From IMG/VR virus record IMGVR_UViG_2609460332_000003: 5,212 bases of DNA; one strand, given 5' to 3'. The notes beneath the pieces were generated by a model, which was given only the letters and a program-made list of their open reading frames with translations, did not search any database and was not told where the DNA came from. The stretch is from a virus. Lineage: Duplodnaviria; Heunggongvirae; Uroviricota; Caudoviricetes. Below are positions 699-5,212 of this stretch, in pieces. The position numbers were made by a program, and so were the translations under genes. How positions within the stretch are numbered: position 1 is the first letter of the stretch; each line of letters opens with the position of its first letter.

Positions 699-772
699 TG
701 TTATCTCCTTAAAAAATTGAGGCGACAACTATGCTGACACAGGGGGTTACTCACCGATCTCCTTCACGGTAA

Positions 773-1003
773 TACGCAACTTTCTCCGGGGATTATCTCC
801 GCGTAACTGACAACAAGGGGAAAACGCACGATGTGCTGACCGGAAGTGATGACGGTCGCCACAGCAACACGTCTCTGGCGTGGGGGGCTGGCGTGCAGTT
901 TAACCCGACCGAATCCGTGACCATTGACCTTGCTTATGAAGGTTCCGGTAGTGGCGACTGGCGAACGGATGCATTTATTGTTGGTATCGGATACCGTTTC
1001 TGA
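773..1003 (+). pseudogene. lom: 5'-truncated lom-like gene (Ail/Lom/OmpX-family outer membrane protein), C-terminal ~76 codons only
   Basis: The frame ending at TGA 1001-1003 translates to YATFSGDYLRVTDNKGKTHDVLTGSDDGRHSNTSLAWGAGVQFNPTESVTIDLAYEGSGSGDWRTDAFIVGIGYRF*. The ...AYEGSGSGDWRTD.FIVG.GY.F terminus is the characteristic last beta-strand region of lambda Lom/Ail-family proteins. There is no N-terminal signal peptide or first ~130 codons; the frame is closed by TAA at 770-772 right next to the IS. Gene order lom then stf then tfa matches lambda. Confidence 0.8.
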
Positions 1004-1107
1004 CAACAGACGCCGATTTATCTTCTGTAAATATTGTTATGATACGCAGGTTCATCCACCTTATGGGGTGAACTGCGTTTGAGGAAACGTAAAGTTACAC
1101 TGTCCTG

Positions 1108-1141
1108 AAGCCCGTGGCGTCACTGCTGCGGGCTTTTTTTA
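1108..1141 (+). terminator. Putative rho-independent terminator downstream of lom
   Basis: AAGCCCG (1108-1114) pairs with CGGGCTT (1129-1135) as a 7-bp GC-rich stem, with a 14-nt loop, followed by a T-run (1134-1141). It lies 13 nt upstream of the stf ATG. Confidence 0.5.
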
Positions 1142-1154
1142 TTGGTGGAAAAGT

Positions 1155-2792
1155 ATGACAGTAAAAATTTCTGGCGTGCTTAAAGATGGCACAGGAAAAC
1201 CAGTACAGAACTGCACCATTGTGCTGAAGGCCAGACGAACCAGCAGCACGGTGGTGGTGAACACGGTGGCCTCTGAAAATCCGGATGAAGCCGGACGTTA
1301 CAGCATGGATGTTGAGCATGGTCAGTACAGCGTCACCCTGCTGGTTGAAGGTTTTCCGCCTTCACATGCCGGGACCATTACCGTCTATGAAGGTTCCAGA
1401 CCAGGTACGCTGAATGATTTTCTCGGTGCCATGACGGAGGATGATGTACGACCGGAGGCACTGCGCCGCTTTGAGCAGATGGTAGAAGAGGTGTCACGTA
1501 ACGCCTCCGCGGTTGCACAGAATACGGCAGCCGCGAAAAAATCAGCCAGCGATGCCAGTGCATCAGCCAGCGAGGCGGCAACTCATGCAACCGATGCTGC
1601 AGCCTCATCACGTGCCGCCAGCACGTCAGCCGGACAGGCCGCGTCGTCGGCTCAGTCAGCGTCTTCCAGCGCAGGAACGGCATCGACAAAGGCCCGTGAA
1701 GCAGCAAAAAGTGCTGCTGCTGCAGAGTCATCAAAAAGCGCGGCAGCTACCAGCGCCAGTGCCGCGAAAACGTCAGAAACGAATGCCGCAGCATCACAAA
1801 AATCGGCAGCCACTTCTGCATCCACAGCGACCACGAAGGCGTCAGAAGCTGCCACCTCGGCACGGGGTGCGGCGGCCTCAAAAGAGGCAGCGAAATCTTC
1901 AGAAACGAATGCATCATCAAGTGCCAGTAGTGCAGCTTCCTCGGCAACGGCGGCAGGAAATTCCGCGAAGGCGGCAAAAACGTCCGAGACGAACGCTAAG
2001 TCTTCTGAAACAGCAGCGGGACAGAGCGCCTCAGCTGCGGCAGGTTCAAAAACAGCGGCTGCATTATCTGCCAGTGCCGCGTCAACAAGTGCCGGGCAGG
2101 CCTCAGCCAGTGCCACCGCCGCCGGAAAATCGGCAGAAAGCGCCGCATCATCCGCTTCAACAGCCACAACGAAGGCTGGCAAAGCCACTGAGCAAGCCAC
2201 TGCAGCAGCGAGGTCTGCTTCTGCAGCAAAAACCTCTGAAACAAATGCAAAGACTTCAGCAGACAATGCTGCTTCCTCTAAGGCGGCAGCCGCATCGTCA
2301 GCCAGTTCAGCGGCGTCATCGGCATCATCTGCGTCTGCTTCAAAAGATGAGGCGACCAGACAGGCGTCAGCAGCAAAGGGCAGCGCCACGACGGCATCCA
2401 CGAAGGCGACAGAGGCAGCTGGCAGTGCGACGGCGGCAGCTCAGAGCAAAAGTACGGCGGAATCCGCGGCAACGCGCGCCGAGACAGCGGCAAAACGGGC
2501 AGAGGATATTGCATCCGCCGTGGCGCTTGAGGATGCGAGCACGACGAAAAAGGGGATAGTACAGCTCAGCAGTGCGACCAACAGCACTTCCGAGTCACTG
2601 GCGGCAACGCCAAAAGCGGTTAAGGCGGTAATGGGTGAAACGAACAAGAAAGCGCCCTTAAATAGTCCTGCACTGACCGGAACGCCAACAACACCAACTG
2701 CGCGACAGGGAACGAATAATACCCAAATCGCAAGCACGGCTTATGTTATGGCTGCGATCGCTGCCTCGTGGACTCGTCGCCTGACGCACTGA
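1155..2792 (+). CDS. stf: Side tail fibre protein Stf, N-terminal portion (545 codons; reading frame terminated prematurely by an apparent 1-nt deletion)
   Basis: ATG at 1155 preceded by GGTGG (1144-1148). N-terminus MTVKISGVLKDGTGKPVQNCTIVLKA... followed by a long Ala/Ser/Thr-rich repeat region with recurring K(T/S)SETNA motifs, as in lambdoid prophage side tail fibres. The frame ends ...TAYVMAAIAASWTRRLTH*, whereas the conserved tail-fibre motif ...AAIAALVDSSPDALNTLNELAAALGNDP... continues in the next frame. Confidence 0.85.
   Translation: MTVKISGVLKDGTGKPVQNCTIVLKARRTSSTVVVNTVASENPDEAGRYSMDVEHGQYSVTLLVEGFPPSHAGTITVYEGSRPGTLNDFLGAMTEDDVRPEALRRFEQMVEEVSRNASAVAQNTAAAKKSASDASASASEAATHATDAAASSRAASTSAGQAASSAQSASSSAGTASTKAREAAKSAAAAESSKSAAATSASAAKTSETNAAASQKSAATSASTATTKASEAATSARGAAASKEAAKSSETNASSSASSAASSATAAGNSAKAAKTSETNAKSSETAAGQSASAAAGSKTAAALSASAASTSAGQASASATAAGKSAESAASSASTATTKAGKATEQATAAARSASAAKTSETNAKTSADNAASSKAAAASSASSAASSASSASASKDEATRQASAAKGSATTASTKATEAAGSATAAAQSKSTAESAATRAETAAKRAEDIASAVALEDASTTKKGIVQLSSATNSTSESLAATPKAVKAVMGETNKKAPLNSPALTGTPTTPTARQGTNNTQIASTAYVMAAIAASWTRRLTH
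1497..2520 (+). repeat. Imperfect in-frame tandem repeats encoding an Ala/Ser/Thr-rich low-complexity region of Stf
   Basis: Recurrent near-identical DNA words: AAAACGTCAGAAACGAATGC (1767-1786), AAATCTTCAGAAACGAATGC (1893-1912), AAAACGTCCGAGACGAACGC (1977-1996), AAAACCTCTGAAACAAATGC (2228-2247). The GCN/TCN codon periodicity leaves alternative frames open on both strands. Confidence 0.75.
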
Positions 2793-4060
2793 ATACGCTG
2801 AACGAGCTGGCTGCGGCGTTGGGCAACGACCCGAATTTTGCGACCACCATGACTAGCGCGCTTGCGGGTAAGCAACCGAAAGATGCCACCCTGACGGCGC
2901 TGGCCGGGCTTGCTACTGCGGCAGACAGGTTTCCGTATTTTACGGGGAATGATGTTGCCAGTCTGGCAACCCTGACAAAAGTTGGGCGGGATATTCTTGC
3001 GAAATCGACCGTTGCCGCCGTTATCGAATACCTCGGTTTACAGGAAACGGTAAACAAGGCTGGTAACGCCGTTCAGCGTTCCGGCGATAAAATGACCGGA
3101 GAACTGAAAATTGGCACGGTGAATGCGCTGCGAATTTTCAATGATGCCTTCGGTCTTATTTTCCGTCGTTCAGAAGATTTTCTTCATTTCATTCCGACGG
3201 CTGAAGGACAAGGCGAAAACGGTGATATCGGCCCATTAAGGCCATTCGCTATAAATCTGAGAACAGGTGCTATATCTGTCAGCCACGGGGCCAAAATTGA
3301 TGGTGGGCTGGCGCTTGGTACAGATAACGCACTGGGCGGTAATTCCATTACTCTCGGAGATAACGACACTGGTATTAAACAGGGCGGCGACGGTGTCCTT
3401 TTATTCTATTCAAATGGACAACTGGCATTTGGGCTTCAACCCGCATCTGCTGATTTTTATAAGCGGGTTGCATATATTCATCAGGGAATAATTCCTGATG
3501 GAAGTGGCGCATTTGCAGACCAGTTGAATAATGCCACCGCGCCTTTTGTTCAGACGCAGTTTGCCTGGAATCCCACTCCTGGTGGTCTTTACGTGCCGAT
3601 AGTTAAGGGCTTGTCCATTCGCAATGGACAGGGCTATCCCGGCGCGGTCAGCTTTGGGTATTTACTGACAGAACAGTATGGATTTCCGGTTCCATGTATT
3701 CATATGCGTGGCGATGGCGGTAATGATGCTTTATGGCAGTTTAACCCGAACGATAAATCCTTTATTTCACCGGGTGCTCTTATTGCGGGTGGCGTCCGTT
3801 ATAACACCGATGGAAATATATTTGGTGGGTGCTGGGGGTCAAACTTAAATGATTACCTGAATAGTTCTTTTATCAGAAATGTGCGTCTGGGAGGCAGACG
3901 TTCTGACACATTATATCGCGGAGGACTTTGCGAACCAGGTAATGGTCATGTGACAACAGGATTGCAAATTATTGGTGAGGTTGATGGAGATGACTGGATG
4001 GTGTCACGACCACTACAAAAATACATTTCTGGTAACTGGTATAACGTTGAACAGGCATAG
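2768..4060 (+). CDS. stf: Side tail fibre protein Stf, C-terminal portion: conserved collar region (2768-3046) plus variable receptor-binding domain (3047-4060); in a different frame from the N-terminal portion
   Basis: Translation from the ORF-track start (GTG 2768) reads (M)DSSPDALNTLNELAAALGNDPNFATTMTSALAGKQPKDATLTALAGL...FPYF...VGRDILAKSTVAAVIEYLGLQE..., the conserved collar shared by P2 H, Mu S, lambda Stf and T4 gp37-type fibres. It ends ...KYISGNWYNVEQA* (TAG 4058-4060). The true protein is most likely continuous with 1155-2792. Confidence 0.85.
   Translation: MDSSPDALNTLNELAAALGNDPNFATTMTSALAGKQPKDATLTALAGLATAADRFPYFTGNDVASLATLTKVGRDILAKSTVAAVIEYLGLQETVNKAGNAVQRSGDKMTGELKIGTVNALRIFNDAFGLIFRRSEDFLHFIPTAEGQGENGDIGPLRPFAINLRTGAISVSHGAKIDGGLALGTDNALGGNSITLGDNDTGIKQGGDGVLLFYSNGQLAFGLQPASADFYKRVAYIHQGIIPDGSGAFADQLNNATAPFVQTQFAWNPTPGGLYVPIVKGLSIRNGQGYPGAVSFGYLLTEQYGFPVPCIHMRGDGGNDALWQFNPNDKSFISPGALIAGGVRYNTDGNIFGGCWGSNLNDYLNSSFIRNVRLGGRRSDTLYRGGLCEPGNGHVTTGLQIIGEVDGDDWMVSRPLQKYISGNWYNVEQA
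3021..3046. other. Gin/Pin/Cin/Hin-family 26-bp DNA-inversion crossover site (gix/pix-like), left boundary of an invertible segment
   Basis: TTATCGAATACCTCGGTTTACAGGAA. From memory, Mu gixR is TTATCCAAAACCTCGGTTTACAGGAA, giving 24/26 identity. It has the 12-2-12 layout with a central TC, and lies in frame inside stf (encoding VIEYLGLQE) at the conserved/variable junction. Confidence 0.7.
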
Positions 4061-4075
4061 CCATCAGGAGAATAT

Positions 4076-4603
4076 ATGCAACATCTGAAAAATATTACCG
4101 CCGGAAACCCCAAAACCATTGAGCAGTATCAGCTTACGAAAAAAGCTGGCGTTATCTGGCTATATACAGAAGACGGTAAAAACTGGTATGACGAATTAAA
4201 AAACTTTCAGGATGATACTTTAAAAATAGCTTATGACCAGAAGGGGATTATTCGTTGTATTGAGAAAGACGTATCAACACTTAACCCTGACGGGTTAAGT
4301 GTTGTTGAGTTACCGAATATAACAGCCAACCGTCGCGCCGATATCTCGGGAAACTGGAAGTTTCTGGATGGTAAAGTAGTAAAGCGGGAATATACAAAAC
4401 AGGAACTGCAACAGCAGGCAGAGTTACAAAAAGCCGCTTTGCTTTCCGAAGCGGAGTCTGTGATTCAACCGCTGGAACGTGCTGTCAGACTGAATATGGC
4501 AACTGATGAGGAACGCACACGACTGGAATCATGGGAACGCTACAGCGTTATGGTCAGCCGTGTGGATACTGCAAAGCCTGAATGGCCACAGAAACCAGAA
4601 TAA
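4076..4603 (+). CDS. tfa: Tail fibre assembly protein (Tfa; Mu U / lambda Tfa family)
   Basis: ATG 4076 preceded by AGGAG (4066-4070) with 5-nt spacing, 15 nt after the stf stop. The 175-aa product [23 protein letters not shown]...ITANRRAD...[23 protein letters not shown] follows the stf-then-tfa arrangement and has the Tfa-family C-terminal pattern (W.RY...V...DT......P..PE). Confidence 0.9.
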
Positions 4604-4612
4604 CAACAAATT

Positions 4613-4630
4613 AAGGCCCGTACGGGCCTT
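4613..4630. terminator. Perfect 18-bp palindrome (AAGGCCCGTACGGGCCTT) between convergent tfa and tfa'; putative bidirectional rho-independent terminator
   Basis: 7-bp GC-rich stem with GTAC loop. It is followed by TTTTCTT on the plus strand and by TTAATTTGTTG on the minus strand, and lies in the 30-bp gap between the two convergent stop codons. Confidence 0.55.
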
Positions 4631-4633
4631 TTC

Positions 4634-5167
4634 TTATTCTGGTGGTTCCGGGAATGTTACAGGAAGAACCGAGGTATCAGTTGTCTCAACCTGTTGCACG
4701 TATCGCATCCAGTTCATCAGTTGCTGTCTGTCTGAATCAGTGATAATCCCCAAAGTAAGCTGTGTTTGCCAGAACTGCGTTTTTTCTCTGGCCTGCTGTA
4801 ATAATATTTTTTTCTGGTTTTCCGTCTGTAGGCGCAACTCTTCTTCGGTATATACACGTTTAATGACTGCGCCATCTTTAAACATCCATTTACCTGAGTC
4901 GTCAGCACGCCGGTTGGCGGTAATATCAGGAATCTCAACGACGCTATAACCTTCAGGGTTAAGTGTGGAGGCATCTTTGGTTATGGCAACAATAATATTA
5001 TTTTCATCGTAAACAATCTTTATGGTGTCTGGCTGAAAGTTTTTCACTTCCTCATACCAGTTTTTTCCGTCCTCAGAGTAAAGCCAGATAACTCCGTGTT
5101 TCTTTGTTAACTCATACTGTTCCAGTGTTTTAGCATTACCCGCTTTTATGTTCTTTAAGTGCATCAT
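4634..5167 (-). CDS. Alternate tail fibre assembly protein (Tfa'; Mu U'-like), inverted relative to tfa
   Basis: 177-aa [41 protein letters not shown]...ITANRRAD...[25 protein letters not shown]. By eye it is about 70% identical to Tfa over the first ~110 residues and diverged after that. Its start is 1 nt downstream of the stf' stop, suggesting translational coupling. Confidence 0.9.
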
Positions 5168-5168
5168 A

Positions 5169-5212
5169 TTAAACGCTCGCTACATTATACCAGGTGCCAT
5201 TTATATACTTTG
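5169..5212 (-). CDS. 3' end (last 13 codons plus stop) of an alternate side-tail-fibre variable domain (stf'), partial at window edge
   Basis: Minus strand 5210..5169 translates to [13 protein letters not shown], which parallels the Stf C-terminus KYISGNWYNVEQA*. The stop TAA (5171-5169) is immediately followed by the tfa' ATG (5167). Confidence 0.6.

Follow-up and report, generated by a model that had tools for sequence, protein, structure and literature searches.

In the Escherichia coli prophage collagen-like tail fibres EPclA and EPclB, a domain named PCoil follows PfN and is built from the heptad Ala-x-x-Ala/Ser-x-x-Ser, with length differences that are multiples of 7 (Ghosh et al. 2012, PMC3368898). 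The same study reported that the CD spectrum was alpha-helical and the melting, near 50 C, reversible, that the protein was a trimer and that EM showed a stalk of ~16 nm. For the side fibre protein Stf of Ur-lambda, Yu et al. 2025 (PMC12617516) assigned a collar (residues 1-91), a linker, a proximal trimeric coiled coil (102-393) and a hinge (394-422), and the lambda proximal domain was seen as a rigid rod by cryo-ET (PMC12617516).

Herein, we analysed a stretch of 5,212 nucleotides (the window) from a virus of the Caudoviricetes (IMG/VR record IMGVR_UViG_2609460332_000003), in which the original prediction had noticed roughly 1 kb of repetitive, Ala/Ser/Thr-coding sequence in a fibre shaft. 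This GC-rich repetitive kilobase is the already described PCoil, or proximal coiled-coil shaft, of a lambda-type Stf; it is real but ordinary. Positions 1491-2519 very probably encode the proximal alpha-helical coiled-coil rod (PCoil), in which three chains would form a stiff spacer. The stf and tfa features of the window are as follows.

1155..1490, + strand: stf codons 1-112, N-terminal collar/attachment domain (PfN, PF08400) and linker (Pfam, 9e7m, AF2)
1491..2519, + strand: probable proximal coiled-coil shaft (PCoil), 49 uninterrupted A-x-x-S-A-x-x heptads, aa 113-455 (heptad listing, 21-nt autocorrelation, AF2, PMC3368898, PMC12617516)
2520..2639, + strand: conserved hinge segment VALEDASTTKKGIVQLSSATNSTSESLAATPKAVKAVMGE, directly after the coiled coil (identical motif in lambda)
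2764..2766, + strand: site of a 1-base deletion, GCC here and GCCC in EC958, which splits stf into the ORFs 1155-2792 and 2768-4060
2768..4060, + strand: distal stf in the shifted frame, distal rod and receptor-binding tip (PHROG tail-fibre families, phrog_454 E = 2.5e-125)
4076..4603, + strand: tfa, tail fibre assembly chaperone (PF02413 E = 9e-35; phrog_136)

The assignment to a fibre shaft was borne out by the stf gene itself, its PF08400 N-domain and the gene order lom-stf-tfa. The PF08400 model is covered over its residues 1-134 of 134 (E = 2e-70), and Stf residues 1-94 match PDB chain 9e7m_Ta, a 94-residue 'Tail fiber protein' (E = 1e-47) whose entry stems from the work on Ur-lambda (Yu et al. 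2025, PMC12617516). The last ~15 residues of codons 1-112 (F106, M109), followed by V113, are already in heptad register, and the hinge segment matches residues 91-151 of the Mu tail fibre protein S (5yvq). The stf gene lies in a lambdoid prophage that is 100% identical to E. coli ST131 EC958 with the exception of the 1-base deletion at 2764-2766. The EC958 locus is ordered gpJ, lom (IS-disrupted), stf and tfa, and J-lom-stf-tfa is also the order in lambda, PhiR26_1, mEp460 and SPF_0923.

In the window, stf does not run through to the receptor-binding tip as a single intact ORF. Homologues carry AAIAALVDSSPDALNTL uninterrupted across the 2764-2766 site, and the EC958 copy (968 aa, no stops) joins the part corresponding to 2768..4060 to the N-terminal part without interruption; no exact match was found for the product of the 545-aa ORF (1155-2792) that the frameshift creates. 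The deletion, if a real frameshift and not a homopolymer error, would change function in the window's genome and leaves the domain identity of the rod unaffected. Since stf is broken downstream of it, the rod in this genome may lack attachment to a functional tip. The distal part of stf sits in a remnant invertible cassette. An inverted-repeat search for a second invertase site found none at seed 10 or at ≤3 mismatches, and a degenerate copy of the site was spotted by eye.

The heptad listing revealed 49 consecutive heptads at 1491-2519, in a single register and with no break, and the span originally proposed (1497-2520) fits this block almost exactly. Position a is occupied by Ala in 47 of the 49 heptads and by Val in 2, position d by Ser in 37 of 49 and by Ile in just 1, and position e by Ala in 35 of 49. 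The GC-rich, Ala/Ser/Thr-coding character of the kilobase was confirmed: the shaft has 133 Ala, 83 Ser and 39 Thr among its 343 residues (74%), and the GC content is 60.1% in 1497-2520 versus 47.5% elsewhere in the window. As in a canonical coiled coil, the heptad periodicity runs without frequent discontinuities; the large aliphatic residues (Leu/Ile/Val) of a canonical hydrophobic core are not found at a and d. Larger hydrophobic residues stand at the rod ends (F106, M109, V113 and V120 at the start; I452, V456 and L458 at the finish). A core of Ala and Ser is unusual in a stable coiled coil; it is a small-residue-core variant, noted already by Ghosh et al. The protein heptad, the mark of a coiled coil of alpha helices, was missed by the original prediction and is what actually accounts for the repeat.

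The periodicity was evident in protein and DNA. Over the 343-residue shaft, the lag-7 protein identity was 0.43 versus 0.23 in shuffles (z = 9.8), and every multiple of 21 nt as far as 315 (15 in all) was within the top 21 lags of the DNA autocorrelation. A self dot-plot had been proposed as a check for internal periodicity; in the blastn self-comparison, 11 of 15 matches had offsets of 0 mod 21, compared with 0-4 of 4-17 when the codons were shuffled. The DNA word reported to recur, AAAACGTCAGAAACGAATGC, was located at the following positions.

1767..1786, + strand: word copy 1, 0 mismatches, encodes K-T-S-E-T-N-A, heptad positions b to a
1893..1912, + strand: word copy 2, 2 mismatches, encodes KSSETNA
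1977..1996, + strand: word copy 3, 3 mismatches, encodes KTSETNA
2229..2248, + strand: word copy 4, 3 mismatches, encodes KTSETNA

No copies were expected in shuffles, so that the recurrence stands, with the fourth copy at 2229 instead of 2228. The spacings of 126, 84 and 252 are multiples of 21; they hint at a 42-nt period, but the autocorrelation showed no preference for it over 21. The SE(T/V)NA peptide of the copies is also present in T7 gp17 and 9cod.

The repeat is indeed imperfect and has 21 nt (7 aa) as its true period; neither a scattered 20-mer nor a DNA tandem array describes it. Tandem Repeats Finder (TRF) returned just two tiny arrays in the shaft (12 nt x 2.1 and 9 nt x 3.2), and the view of a tandem DNA repeat was dropped for that of a protein periodicity since no substantial array was found. 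The longest exact internal repeat is 14 nt, common to word copies 1 and 2, and the self-similar pieces are ≤52 nt at 76-88% identity. The DNA repeat reflects the protein periodicity, with GCN (Ala), TCN/AGY (Ser) and ACN (Thr) codons every 21 nt, and this recurrence makes the region GC-rich and leaves two alternative frames open. Two features bear on the length of the shaft.

2307..2335, + strand: 9-nt micro-tandem array, 3.2 copies, SSA/ASS codons (TRF)
2064..2378, + strand: 315-nt block, 105 aa or exactly 15 heptads, absent from lambda Stf (pairwise alignment with lambda orf-401; junction sequences)

The 2064..2378 block is the sole indel between the shafts of the window (49 heptads) and lambda (34 heptads). 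The lengths of other homologues were compared by an anchor-distance test, because a heptad-run detector was too crude and also caught the e-position Ala register. The 163 homologues with both anchors had shafts of ~10 to 49 heptads; in 15 of the 26 anchor-distance classes the difference from the window's allele is a multiple of 7 (binomial P = 3e-7), and in the other 11 it is not. The expectation that shaft length varies among homologues was therefore correct, from 34 heptads in lambda to 49 here and over classes of ~10 to 49. The original prediction was to fall if the dot-plot lacked periodicity or all homologues had one repeat number; the periodicity is present and the length differs, so neither outcome was found. 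Some close alleles have deletions of 1, 3, 4 or 5 aa that would break the register, and in the close allele P0028 a 3-aa deletion lies exactly at the micro-array 2307..2335. These off-register deletions imply either that strict continuity is not obligatory or that those prophage alleles are decaying. Among the matches listed, 25 complete ST131 genomes share one shaft length and an identical sequence, and PhiR26_1 and SPF_0923 have exactly 49 heptads despite ~10% DNA divergence, which indicates that length changes are rare on an evolutionary time scale.

It had been proposed that the imperfect repeats are substrates for slipped-strand mispairing or unequal homologous recombination, which would make the shaft a contingency-type hot spot of rapid length change. 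The spread of shaft lengths (34 heptads in lambda versus 49 here, classes from ~10 to 49) and the small in-frame deletions of close alleles, of which one falls precisely on the 9-nt micro-array, are in line with this proposal. However, the frequent variation that it entails was not seen, the length being constant at 49 heptads in the 25 listed ST131 genomes and in the ~10% diverged PhiR26_1 and SPF_0923. The 14-nt longest exact repeat, the short self-similar pieces (≤52 nt, 76-88% identity) and the lack of a substantial TRF array also stand against it. Efficient RecA-type recombination usually needs ~20-30 bp of identity, and the shaft repeats are below this. The long near-perfect tandem DNA repeats of a contingency locus are missing from the shaft, and in place of a copy number that differs among close strains there are only sporadic small deletions. 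With so short an exact repeat and so stable a length, the region is neither a slippage hot spot nor at risk of assembly collapse, and we consider rapid length switching improbable. Rod length would instead evolve by rare gain or loss of whole heptads, by which the register is preserved, plus module exchange between phages.

It is conceivable, if rather unlikely, that the heptad number is a selected 'molecular ruler' with discrete rod-length classes (e.g. 34 versus 49 heptads, ~16 nm apart); what the data show is quantised length variation and stable length classes. The classes might be matched to the thickness of the host surface layer, be it O-antigen or capsule, or to how far the central fibre reaches, and new ones might arise when units that code for heptads undergo unequal exchange in register. 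In that case, rod length would help to determine host range independently of the receptor-binding tip.

An Ala/Ser/Thr-rich stretch can also be read as a low-complexity, intrinsically disordered linker with no folded rod, a reading consistent with the 74% Ala/Ser/Thr, the near lack of large hydrophobic residues and the low AF2 confidence for residues 239-338. The AF2 monomer model has helices at 98-242 and 330-468 (pLDDT 64-86) and beta strands in 2-77; its mean pLDDT is 57.7 and its pTM 0.33, residues 239-338 are below 50, and the helix is folded back on itself. Given this folded-back, low-confidence form, the model served as a basis for secondary structure only. A disordered linker gives no reason for a strict 7-residue phase across 343 residues or for a length that varies mostly by multiples of 7. 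Moreover, the homologous PCoil is alpha-helical by CD, melts cooperatively and appears as a stalk in EM (PMC3368898), and the lambda proximal domain is a rigid cryo-ET rod (PMC12617516). Disorder is thus very unlikely. A search of a PDB copy yielded no solved rod structure; of the lambda-type homologue, this copy covers residues 1-94 only.

In the coiled-coil rod, three Stf chains would be fixed to the tail through their N-terminal collar domains (aa 1-~95), and from about residue 100, by analogy with the homologues, they would form one parallel three-stranded coiled coil. Its core would consist of very small residues (Ala at positions a and e, Ser at d). At ~0.148 nm per residue, the 343 residues would span ~51 nm, ~16 nm more than the 34-heptad rod of lambda. 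The rod probably acts as a stiff spacer that keeps hinge, distal rod and receptor-binding tip, parts presumably folded with the help of Tfa, away from the tail; such a spacer would let the side fibre touch the cell surface ahead of the central fibre. Our analysis itself supplied the heptad pattern, the lambda Stf homology, the gene context, the helix prediction and the length variation in heptad quanta. That the CD spectrum is alpha-helical, that the protein is a trimer and that EM and cryo-ET reveal a rod comes from literature on homologues; the core packing, the length in nm, the spacer function and the mechanism of length change are what we infer.

All frames on both strands had been described as open, which was not the case. 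In 1497-2520, the coding, +1 and +2 frames contain 0, 0 and 9 stops and the minus frames 3, 29 and 3, so that only two plus frames are stop-free. Two long overlapping ORFs were evaluated.

1513..2559, + strand: 348-aa ORF in the +1 frame, non-coding by-product (codon shuffles, no excess synonymous constraint)
1652..2401, - strand: 249-aa antisense ORF, by-product, counterpart of lambda's annotated orf206b (T|A junction depletion)

Their length, the antisense frame with fewer stops than shuffles predict, and the annotation of orf206b at the equivalent place in lambda might suggest that one of them is a real second gene. The +1 frame, however, was also stop-free in 17% of codon shuffles and is open as expected from codon content. 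The antisense frame has 3 stops versus ~10 in codon or synonymous shuffles (P ~ 0.003), and this deficit is attributable to a general depletion of T|A codon junctions (8 observed versus 18.6 expected in the heptads), which is shared by the N-domain (3 versus 8.2), where there is no such ORF. The synonymous divergence of the host frame is not lowered in the overlap, the differences from lambda per codon being 0.25-0.28 in the heptads and 0.25 in the N-domain, which argues that no second reading frame is constrained. In addition, the translations are low-complexity, either Arg/Gln/Pro-rich or Ala/Asp/Phe-rich. The idea of an overlapping gene was rejected, as T|A depletion accounts for the antisense frame and composition for the +1 frame, and a second gene is highly improbable. 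Both ORFs are by-products, as originally supposed; since shuffling the codon order keeps long ORFs, their source is amino-acid and codon composition and T|A junction avoidance, not the periodicity.

That the shaft is an assembly artefact, a collapsed or mis-assembled repeat as the original prediction had warned, has nothing in its favour except the repetitive look of the sequence and can practically be dismissed, given the one length and identical sequence in 25 listed independent complete genomes, a longest exact repeat that, at 14 nt, does not reach the length of assembler k-mers, and a reading frame and heptad phase intact throughout.

The shaft finding is already known and matters little beyond annotation. 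For annotation, the heptad-coded Stf rod explains spurious long ORFs that are still annotated, such as lambda orf206b, and the shaft region poses no difficulty for assembly. Where side fibres are engineered or compared, the simple rule is to alter rod length by whole heptads (21 nt). Because no atomic rod structure was found in the PDB copy searched, the very regular Ala/Ser core over 49 heptads could interest structural biologists.

Among known systems, there is a likeness to the Ala-rich coiled coils of honeybee silk, which also have heptads and small core residues, mainly Ala (PMC12284834, PMC6403662); this is an analogy only, the silk being a heterotetramer of unrelated sequence. Residues 172-265 of T7 gp17 (proximal fibre, N-terminal half) share the A-x-x-S heptads and the SE(V/T)NA motif and are likewise flanked by an N-terminal domain for tail attachment and a distal part that binds the receptor. 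The phmmer match to them was marginal (E = 0.035-0.07 over ~94 residues) in compositionally biased sequence; the T7 region is far shorter, and there are differences in N-terminal adaptor and phage morphotype. The rod has a weak similarity of the same kind, with A-x-x-S heptads and the SE(T/V)NA motif, to 9cod 124-250, an entry for which our literature search found no paper mentioning it.

The PCoil of EPclA/EPclB (PMC3368898) resembles the window's rod in following PfN (PF08400), in its Ala-x-x-Ala/Ser-x-x-Ser heptad nearly without Leu and Ile, and in lengths that differ by multiples of seven. It has been shown to be alpha-helical within a trimeric protein. The EPcl PCoil is much the shorter of the two (~110 residues, ~16 nm) and precedes a collagen triple helix, unlike the window's rod of 343 residues, which leads into a lambda-type hinge and distal rod.

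The Stf of lambda and Ur-lambda (PMC12617516) is alike in its collar domain, its Ala/Ser heptad rod in equal register and its lom-stf-tfa context, and lambda Stf also has the hinge motif VALEDA..KGIVQLSSATNS. Lambda Stf differs in having 34 heptads as against 49, through the one 15-heptad block, and the window departs from it in the distal part and tip, with the remnant invertible cassette. The stf genes of lambda and the window are each broken by a 1-base frameshift, at different sites; in the aligned parts, lambda orf-401 is collinear with the window's Stf, with ~85% identical residues by eye.

Nucleotides 746-5211 of the window are 100% identical, except for one missing base, to a lambdoid prophage found in E. 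coli ST131 genomes such as EC958. The EC958 prophage locus adjoins ompW/trpA and has the gene order gpJ, lom (interrupted by an IS), stf, tfa, an inverted tfa', a fibre fragment and a truncated recombinase. The features that place the repeat region are as follows.

1155-2792: N-terminal part of the side tail fibre gene stf, encoding at its start a complete PF08400 ('prophage tail fibre N-terminal') domain (E = 2e-70)
4076-4603, plus strand: tail-fibre assembly chaperone gene tfa (PF02413)
4634-5167, minus strand: tail-fibre assembly chaperone gene tfa' (PF02413)

The ORF at 1155-2792 also matched PHROG tail-fibre families, and its residues 1-94 matched PDB chain 9e7m_Ta, a 94-residue 'Tail fiber protein' (E = 1e-47) from the Ur-lambda study of Yu et al. 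2025 (PMC12617516). Given these matches and the PF02413 neighbours, the repeat region (1497-2520) lies inside stf. In RefSeq/PGAP, EC958 stf (6410-7906 of the prophage locus, L001) is labelled a pseudogene 'missing C-terminus', and ~1.4 kb has no annotation. Since the EC958 ORF stays open for 968 aa, as far as the tip, this label looks like an annotation artefact of a mosaic gene.

The lom gene of the window is disrupted (731-1003). The end of an IS3-family element occupies nucleotides 1 to ~780, with an orfA-like ORF at 186-728 on the minus strand, and its match overlaps the EC958 match at 746-780; at the equivalent lom site EC958 carries the IS21-family ISEc12 instead. The window's IS/prophage junction was found in no complete E. 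coli genome of the collection searched. Between lom' and stf (1095-1140), a GC-rich hairpin is followed by a T run (gcccgtggcgtcactgctgcgggcttttttt), and a rho-independent terminator is annotated at the equivalent place in mEp460.

The original prediction described the region as GC-rich and internally repeated, and the GC content was indeed 60.1% in 1497-2520 compared with 47.5% elsewhere in the window. The recurring 20-mer was found in four copies, where none is expected by chance, at 1767, 1893, 1977 and 2229 (the last had been placed at 2228), with 0, 2, 3 and 3 mismatches; the copies lie 126, 84 and 252 nt apart, each a multiple of 21. In the DNA autocorrelation of 1497-2520, all multiples of 21 nt up to 315 were within the 21 highest lags, with identities of 0.40-0.46 compared with an average of 0.377 over lags divisible by 3. 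A 42-nt period was rejected, as the autocorrelation had no preference for 42 over 21. A blastn self dot-plot confirmed the internal periodicity: 11 of 15 off-diagonal matches fell at offsets of 0 mod 21, whereas codon-shuffled controls gave only 0-4 such matches out of 4-17. The similarity between units was low, with pieces of ≤52 nt at 76-88% identity and a longest exact repeat of 14 nt, and Tandem Repeats Finder reported two tiny arrays only. The observation is real in essence, with one detail wrong, and its interpretation is partly right. All frames on both strands had been said to be open; within 1497-2520 only the coding (+0) and +1 frames are stop-free (0 stops each), and the +2 frame contains 9 stops and the three minus frames 3, 29 and 3.

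At the protein level, residues 113-455 (nt 1491-2519) form 49 consecutive heptads in unbroken register, with Ala at position a in 47/49, Ser at d in 37/49 and Ala at e in 35/49. This 343-residue segment comprises 133 Ala, 83 Ser and 39 Thr, and its lag-7 identity is 0.43 compared with 0.23 ± 0.02 in shuffles (z = 9.8). Larger hydrophobics occur only at its two ends (F106, M109, V113 and V120 towards the N-terminus; I452, V456 and L458 towards the C-terminus). These heptads are the coiled-coil rod, already well known, of lambda-type side tail fibres. The 20-mer that recurs in the DNA encodes K-T-S-E-T-N-A; as in the rod, SE(T/V)NA lies within A-x-x-S heptads in T7 gp17 (172-265) and PDB 9cod (124-250), both marginal matches (E 0.01-0.07). 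An AF2 monomer model of low overall confidence (mean pLDDT 57.7) predicted helices at 98-242, 253-296 and 330-468, the two long ones (pLDDT 64-86) being folded back on each other. Three Stf chains, fixed to the tail through their collar domains, would assemble into a parallel three-helix rod around a tightly packed core of Ala and Ser, and the few larger hydrophobics at both ends may help set its register. With a rise of ~0.148 nm per residue, such a rod would measure ~51 nm, versus ~35 nm for 34 heptads, and would serve as a spacer presenting the hinge, distal rod and receptor-binding tip to the cell surface.

Rod length was assessed in 163 homologues, comprising close relatives and 50%-identity representatives, as the distance from the end of PfN (the PF08400 collar/attachment domain) to the hinge motif, both serving as conserved anchors. 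The distances fell into 26 classes of 86 to 420 residues; for 15 of them the difference from this allele was divisible by 7 (3.7 expected; binomial P = 3e-7), corresponding to ~10 to 49 heptads. Exceptions were deletions of 1+7, 3, 4 or 5 residues in some close prophage alleles, and the 3-residue deletion of one falls exactly in a 9-nt micro-array (2307-2335). Shaft length thus differs among relatives, as predicted (34 heptads in lambda, 49 here). Slipped-strand or homologous recombination was the proposed cause. Against its being frequent stand the intact Stf proteins of two isolated phages, Salmonella phage SPF_0923 and PhiR26_1 (whose host is E. coli K-12), which keep exactly 49 heptads at ~10% DNA divergence, and an internal DNA identity too low for frequent homologous exchange, given the minimal homology that recombination requires. 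Assembly collapse, also raised, is no concern, because the longest exact repeat is so short and the length is the same in 25 listed complete genomes. Rod length does change, mostly by whole heptads, and a given class of length persists while the sequence diverges substantially; this is change on an evolutionary scale rather than at a hot spot.

In mEp460 the heptad run stops earlier and gives way to an unrelated distal module, and several 50%-identity representatives keep the rod with a different N-terminus, an instance of the mosaicism familiar from fibre genes. The homologous proteins P0144, P0149, P0158, P0167, P0181 and P0220 carry an Ala/Ser heptad rod (~42-44 heptads) behind non-PfN N-termini, and one 2820-aa protein has several such runs, which suggests that the rod is a mobile module common to different fibre types.

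The overlapping 348-aa and 249-aa ORFs are by-products, as proposed, but of composition rather than periodicity. Only 1% of the region's codons have T at the second position, and the +1 frame is stop-free because NTA/NTG codons, the possible starts of out-of-frame TAA/TAG/TGA, are almost absent; zero +1 stops were also seen in 17% of codon-order shuffles. The antisense frame of the 249-aa ORF has 3 stops versus ~10 in shuffles. Stops there would come from NCT codons followed by A-starting codons, and such T-A codon junctions are depleted in the heptad region (8 observed, 18.6 expected) and equally in the N-domain (3 versus 8.2), although no such ORF exists there. Synonymous divergence from lambda is not reduced in the heptads (0.25-0.28 per codon, against 0.25 in the N-domain), so a second frame is under no constraint. 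The lambda reference annotation (NC_001416) lists orf206b (20147-20767, minus strand) antisense within the Stf heptad region; this counterpart of the 249-aa ORF is most likely a compositional by-product too.

A C run at 2764-2766 is one base short (GCC, versus GCCC in EC958 and 25 listed ST131 genomes), which splits stf into ORFs 1155-2792 and 2768-4060 and separates the rod from the distal part. Homologues read through this site, and no exact match to the truncated 545-aa product is recorded in public assemblies. The deletion could be a real mutation (pseudogene) or a homopolymer sequencing error; it is reminiscent of the lambda PaPa stf frameshift, at a different site. Further along stf (3028-3055) lies TTATCGAATACCTCGGTTTACAGGAAAC, which resembles the crossover sites of Gin/Pin/Cin-type invertases. 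A degenerate copy in inverted orientation, TTATCTAAAACCTCGGTTTACGAGAAC, is present in EC958 (L001 ~11346-11372), beside a 180-nt recombinase gene remnant (L001 11438-11617) and adjoining an alternative fibre tip truncated at its N-terminus. With tfa and tfa' facing each other, the arrangement fits an invertible fibre-tip cassette that has decayed and is probably frozen.

Lambda orf-401, the N-terminal part of the frameshifted lambda PaPa stf, is collinear with ORF 1155-2792 except for one gap of 105 aa, exactly 15 heptads, present here at nt 2064-2378; its heptads share their register with those of the window, and the hinge motif VALEDA..KGIVQLSSATNSTSE follows them in both. Ghosh et al. 2012 (PLoS One, PMC3368898) named the low-complexity region after PfN 'PCoil' and described an Ala-x-x-Ala/Ser-x-x-Ser heptad almost without Leu and Ile, with lengths differing by multiples of seven. 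By CD, PfN-PCoil was alpha-helical with reversible melting near 50 C; the PCoil-bearing protein was trimeric, and EM showed PCoil as a stalk of ~16 nm. Yu et al. 2025 (Sci Adv, PMC12617516), using cryo-EM, cryo-ET and AlphaFold3, divided Ur-lambda Stf into collar (1-91), linker (92-101), proximal trimeric coiled coil (102-393) and hinge (394-422), with a distal rod and tip beyond; each virion has 4 side fibres, each a trimer, which speed up adsorption via OmpC. Given these two descriptions, what the region is, and even that its length is quantised in heptads, has already been published.
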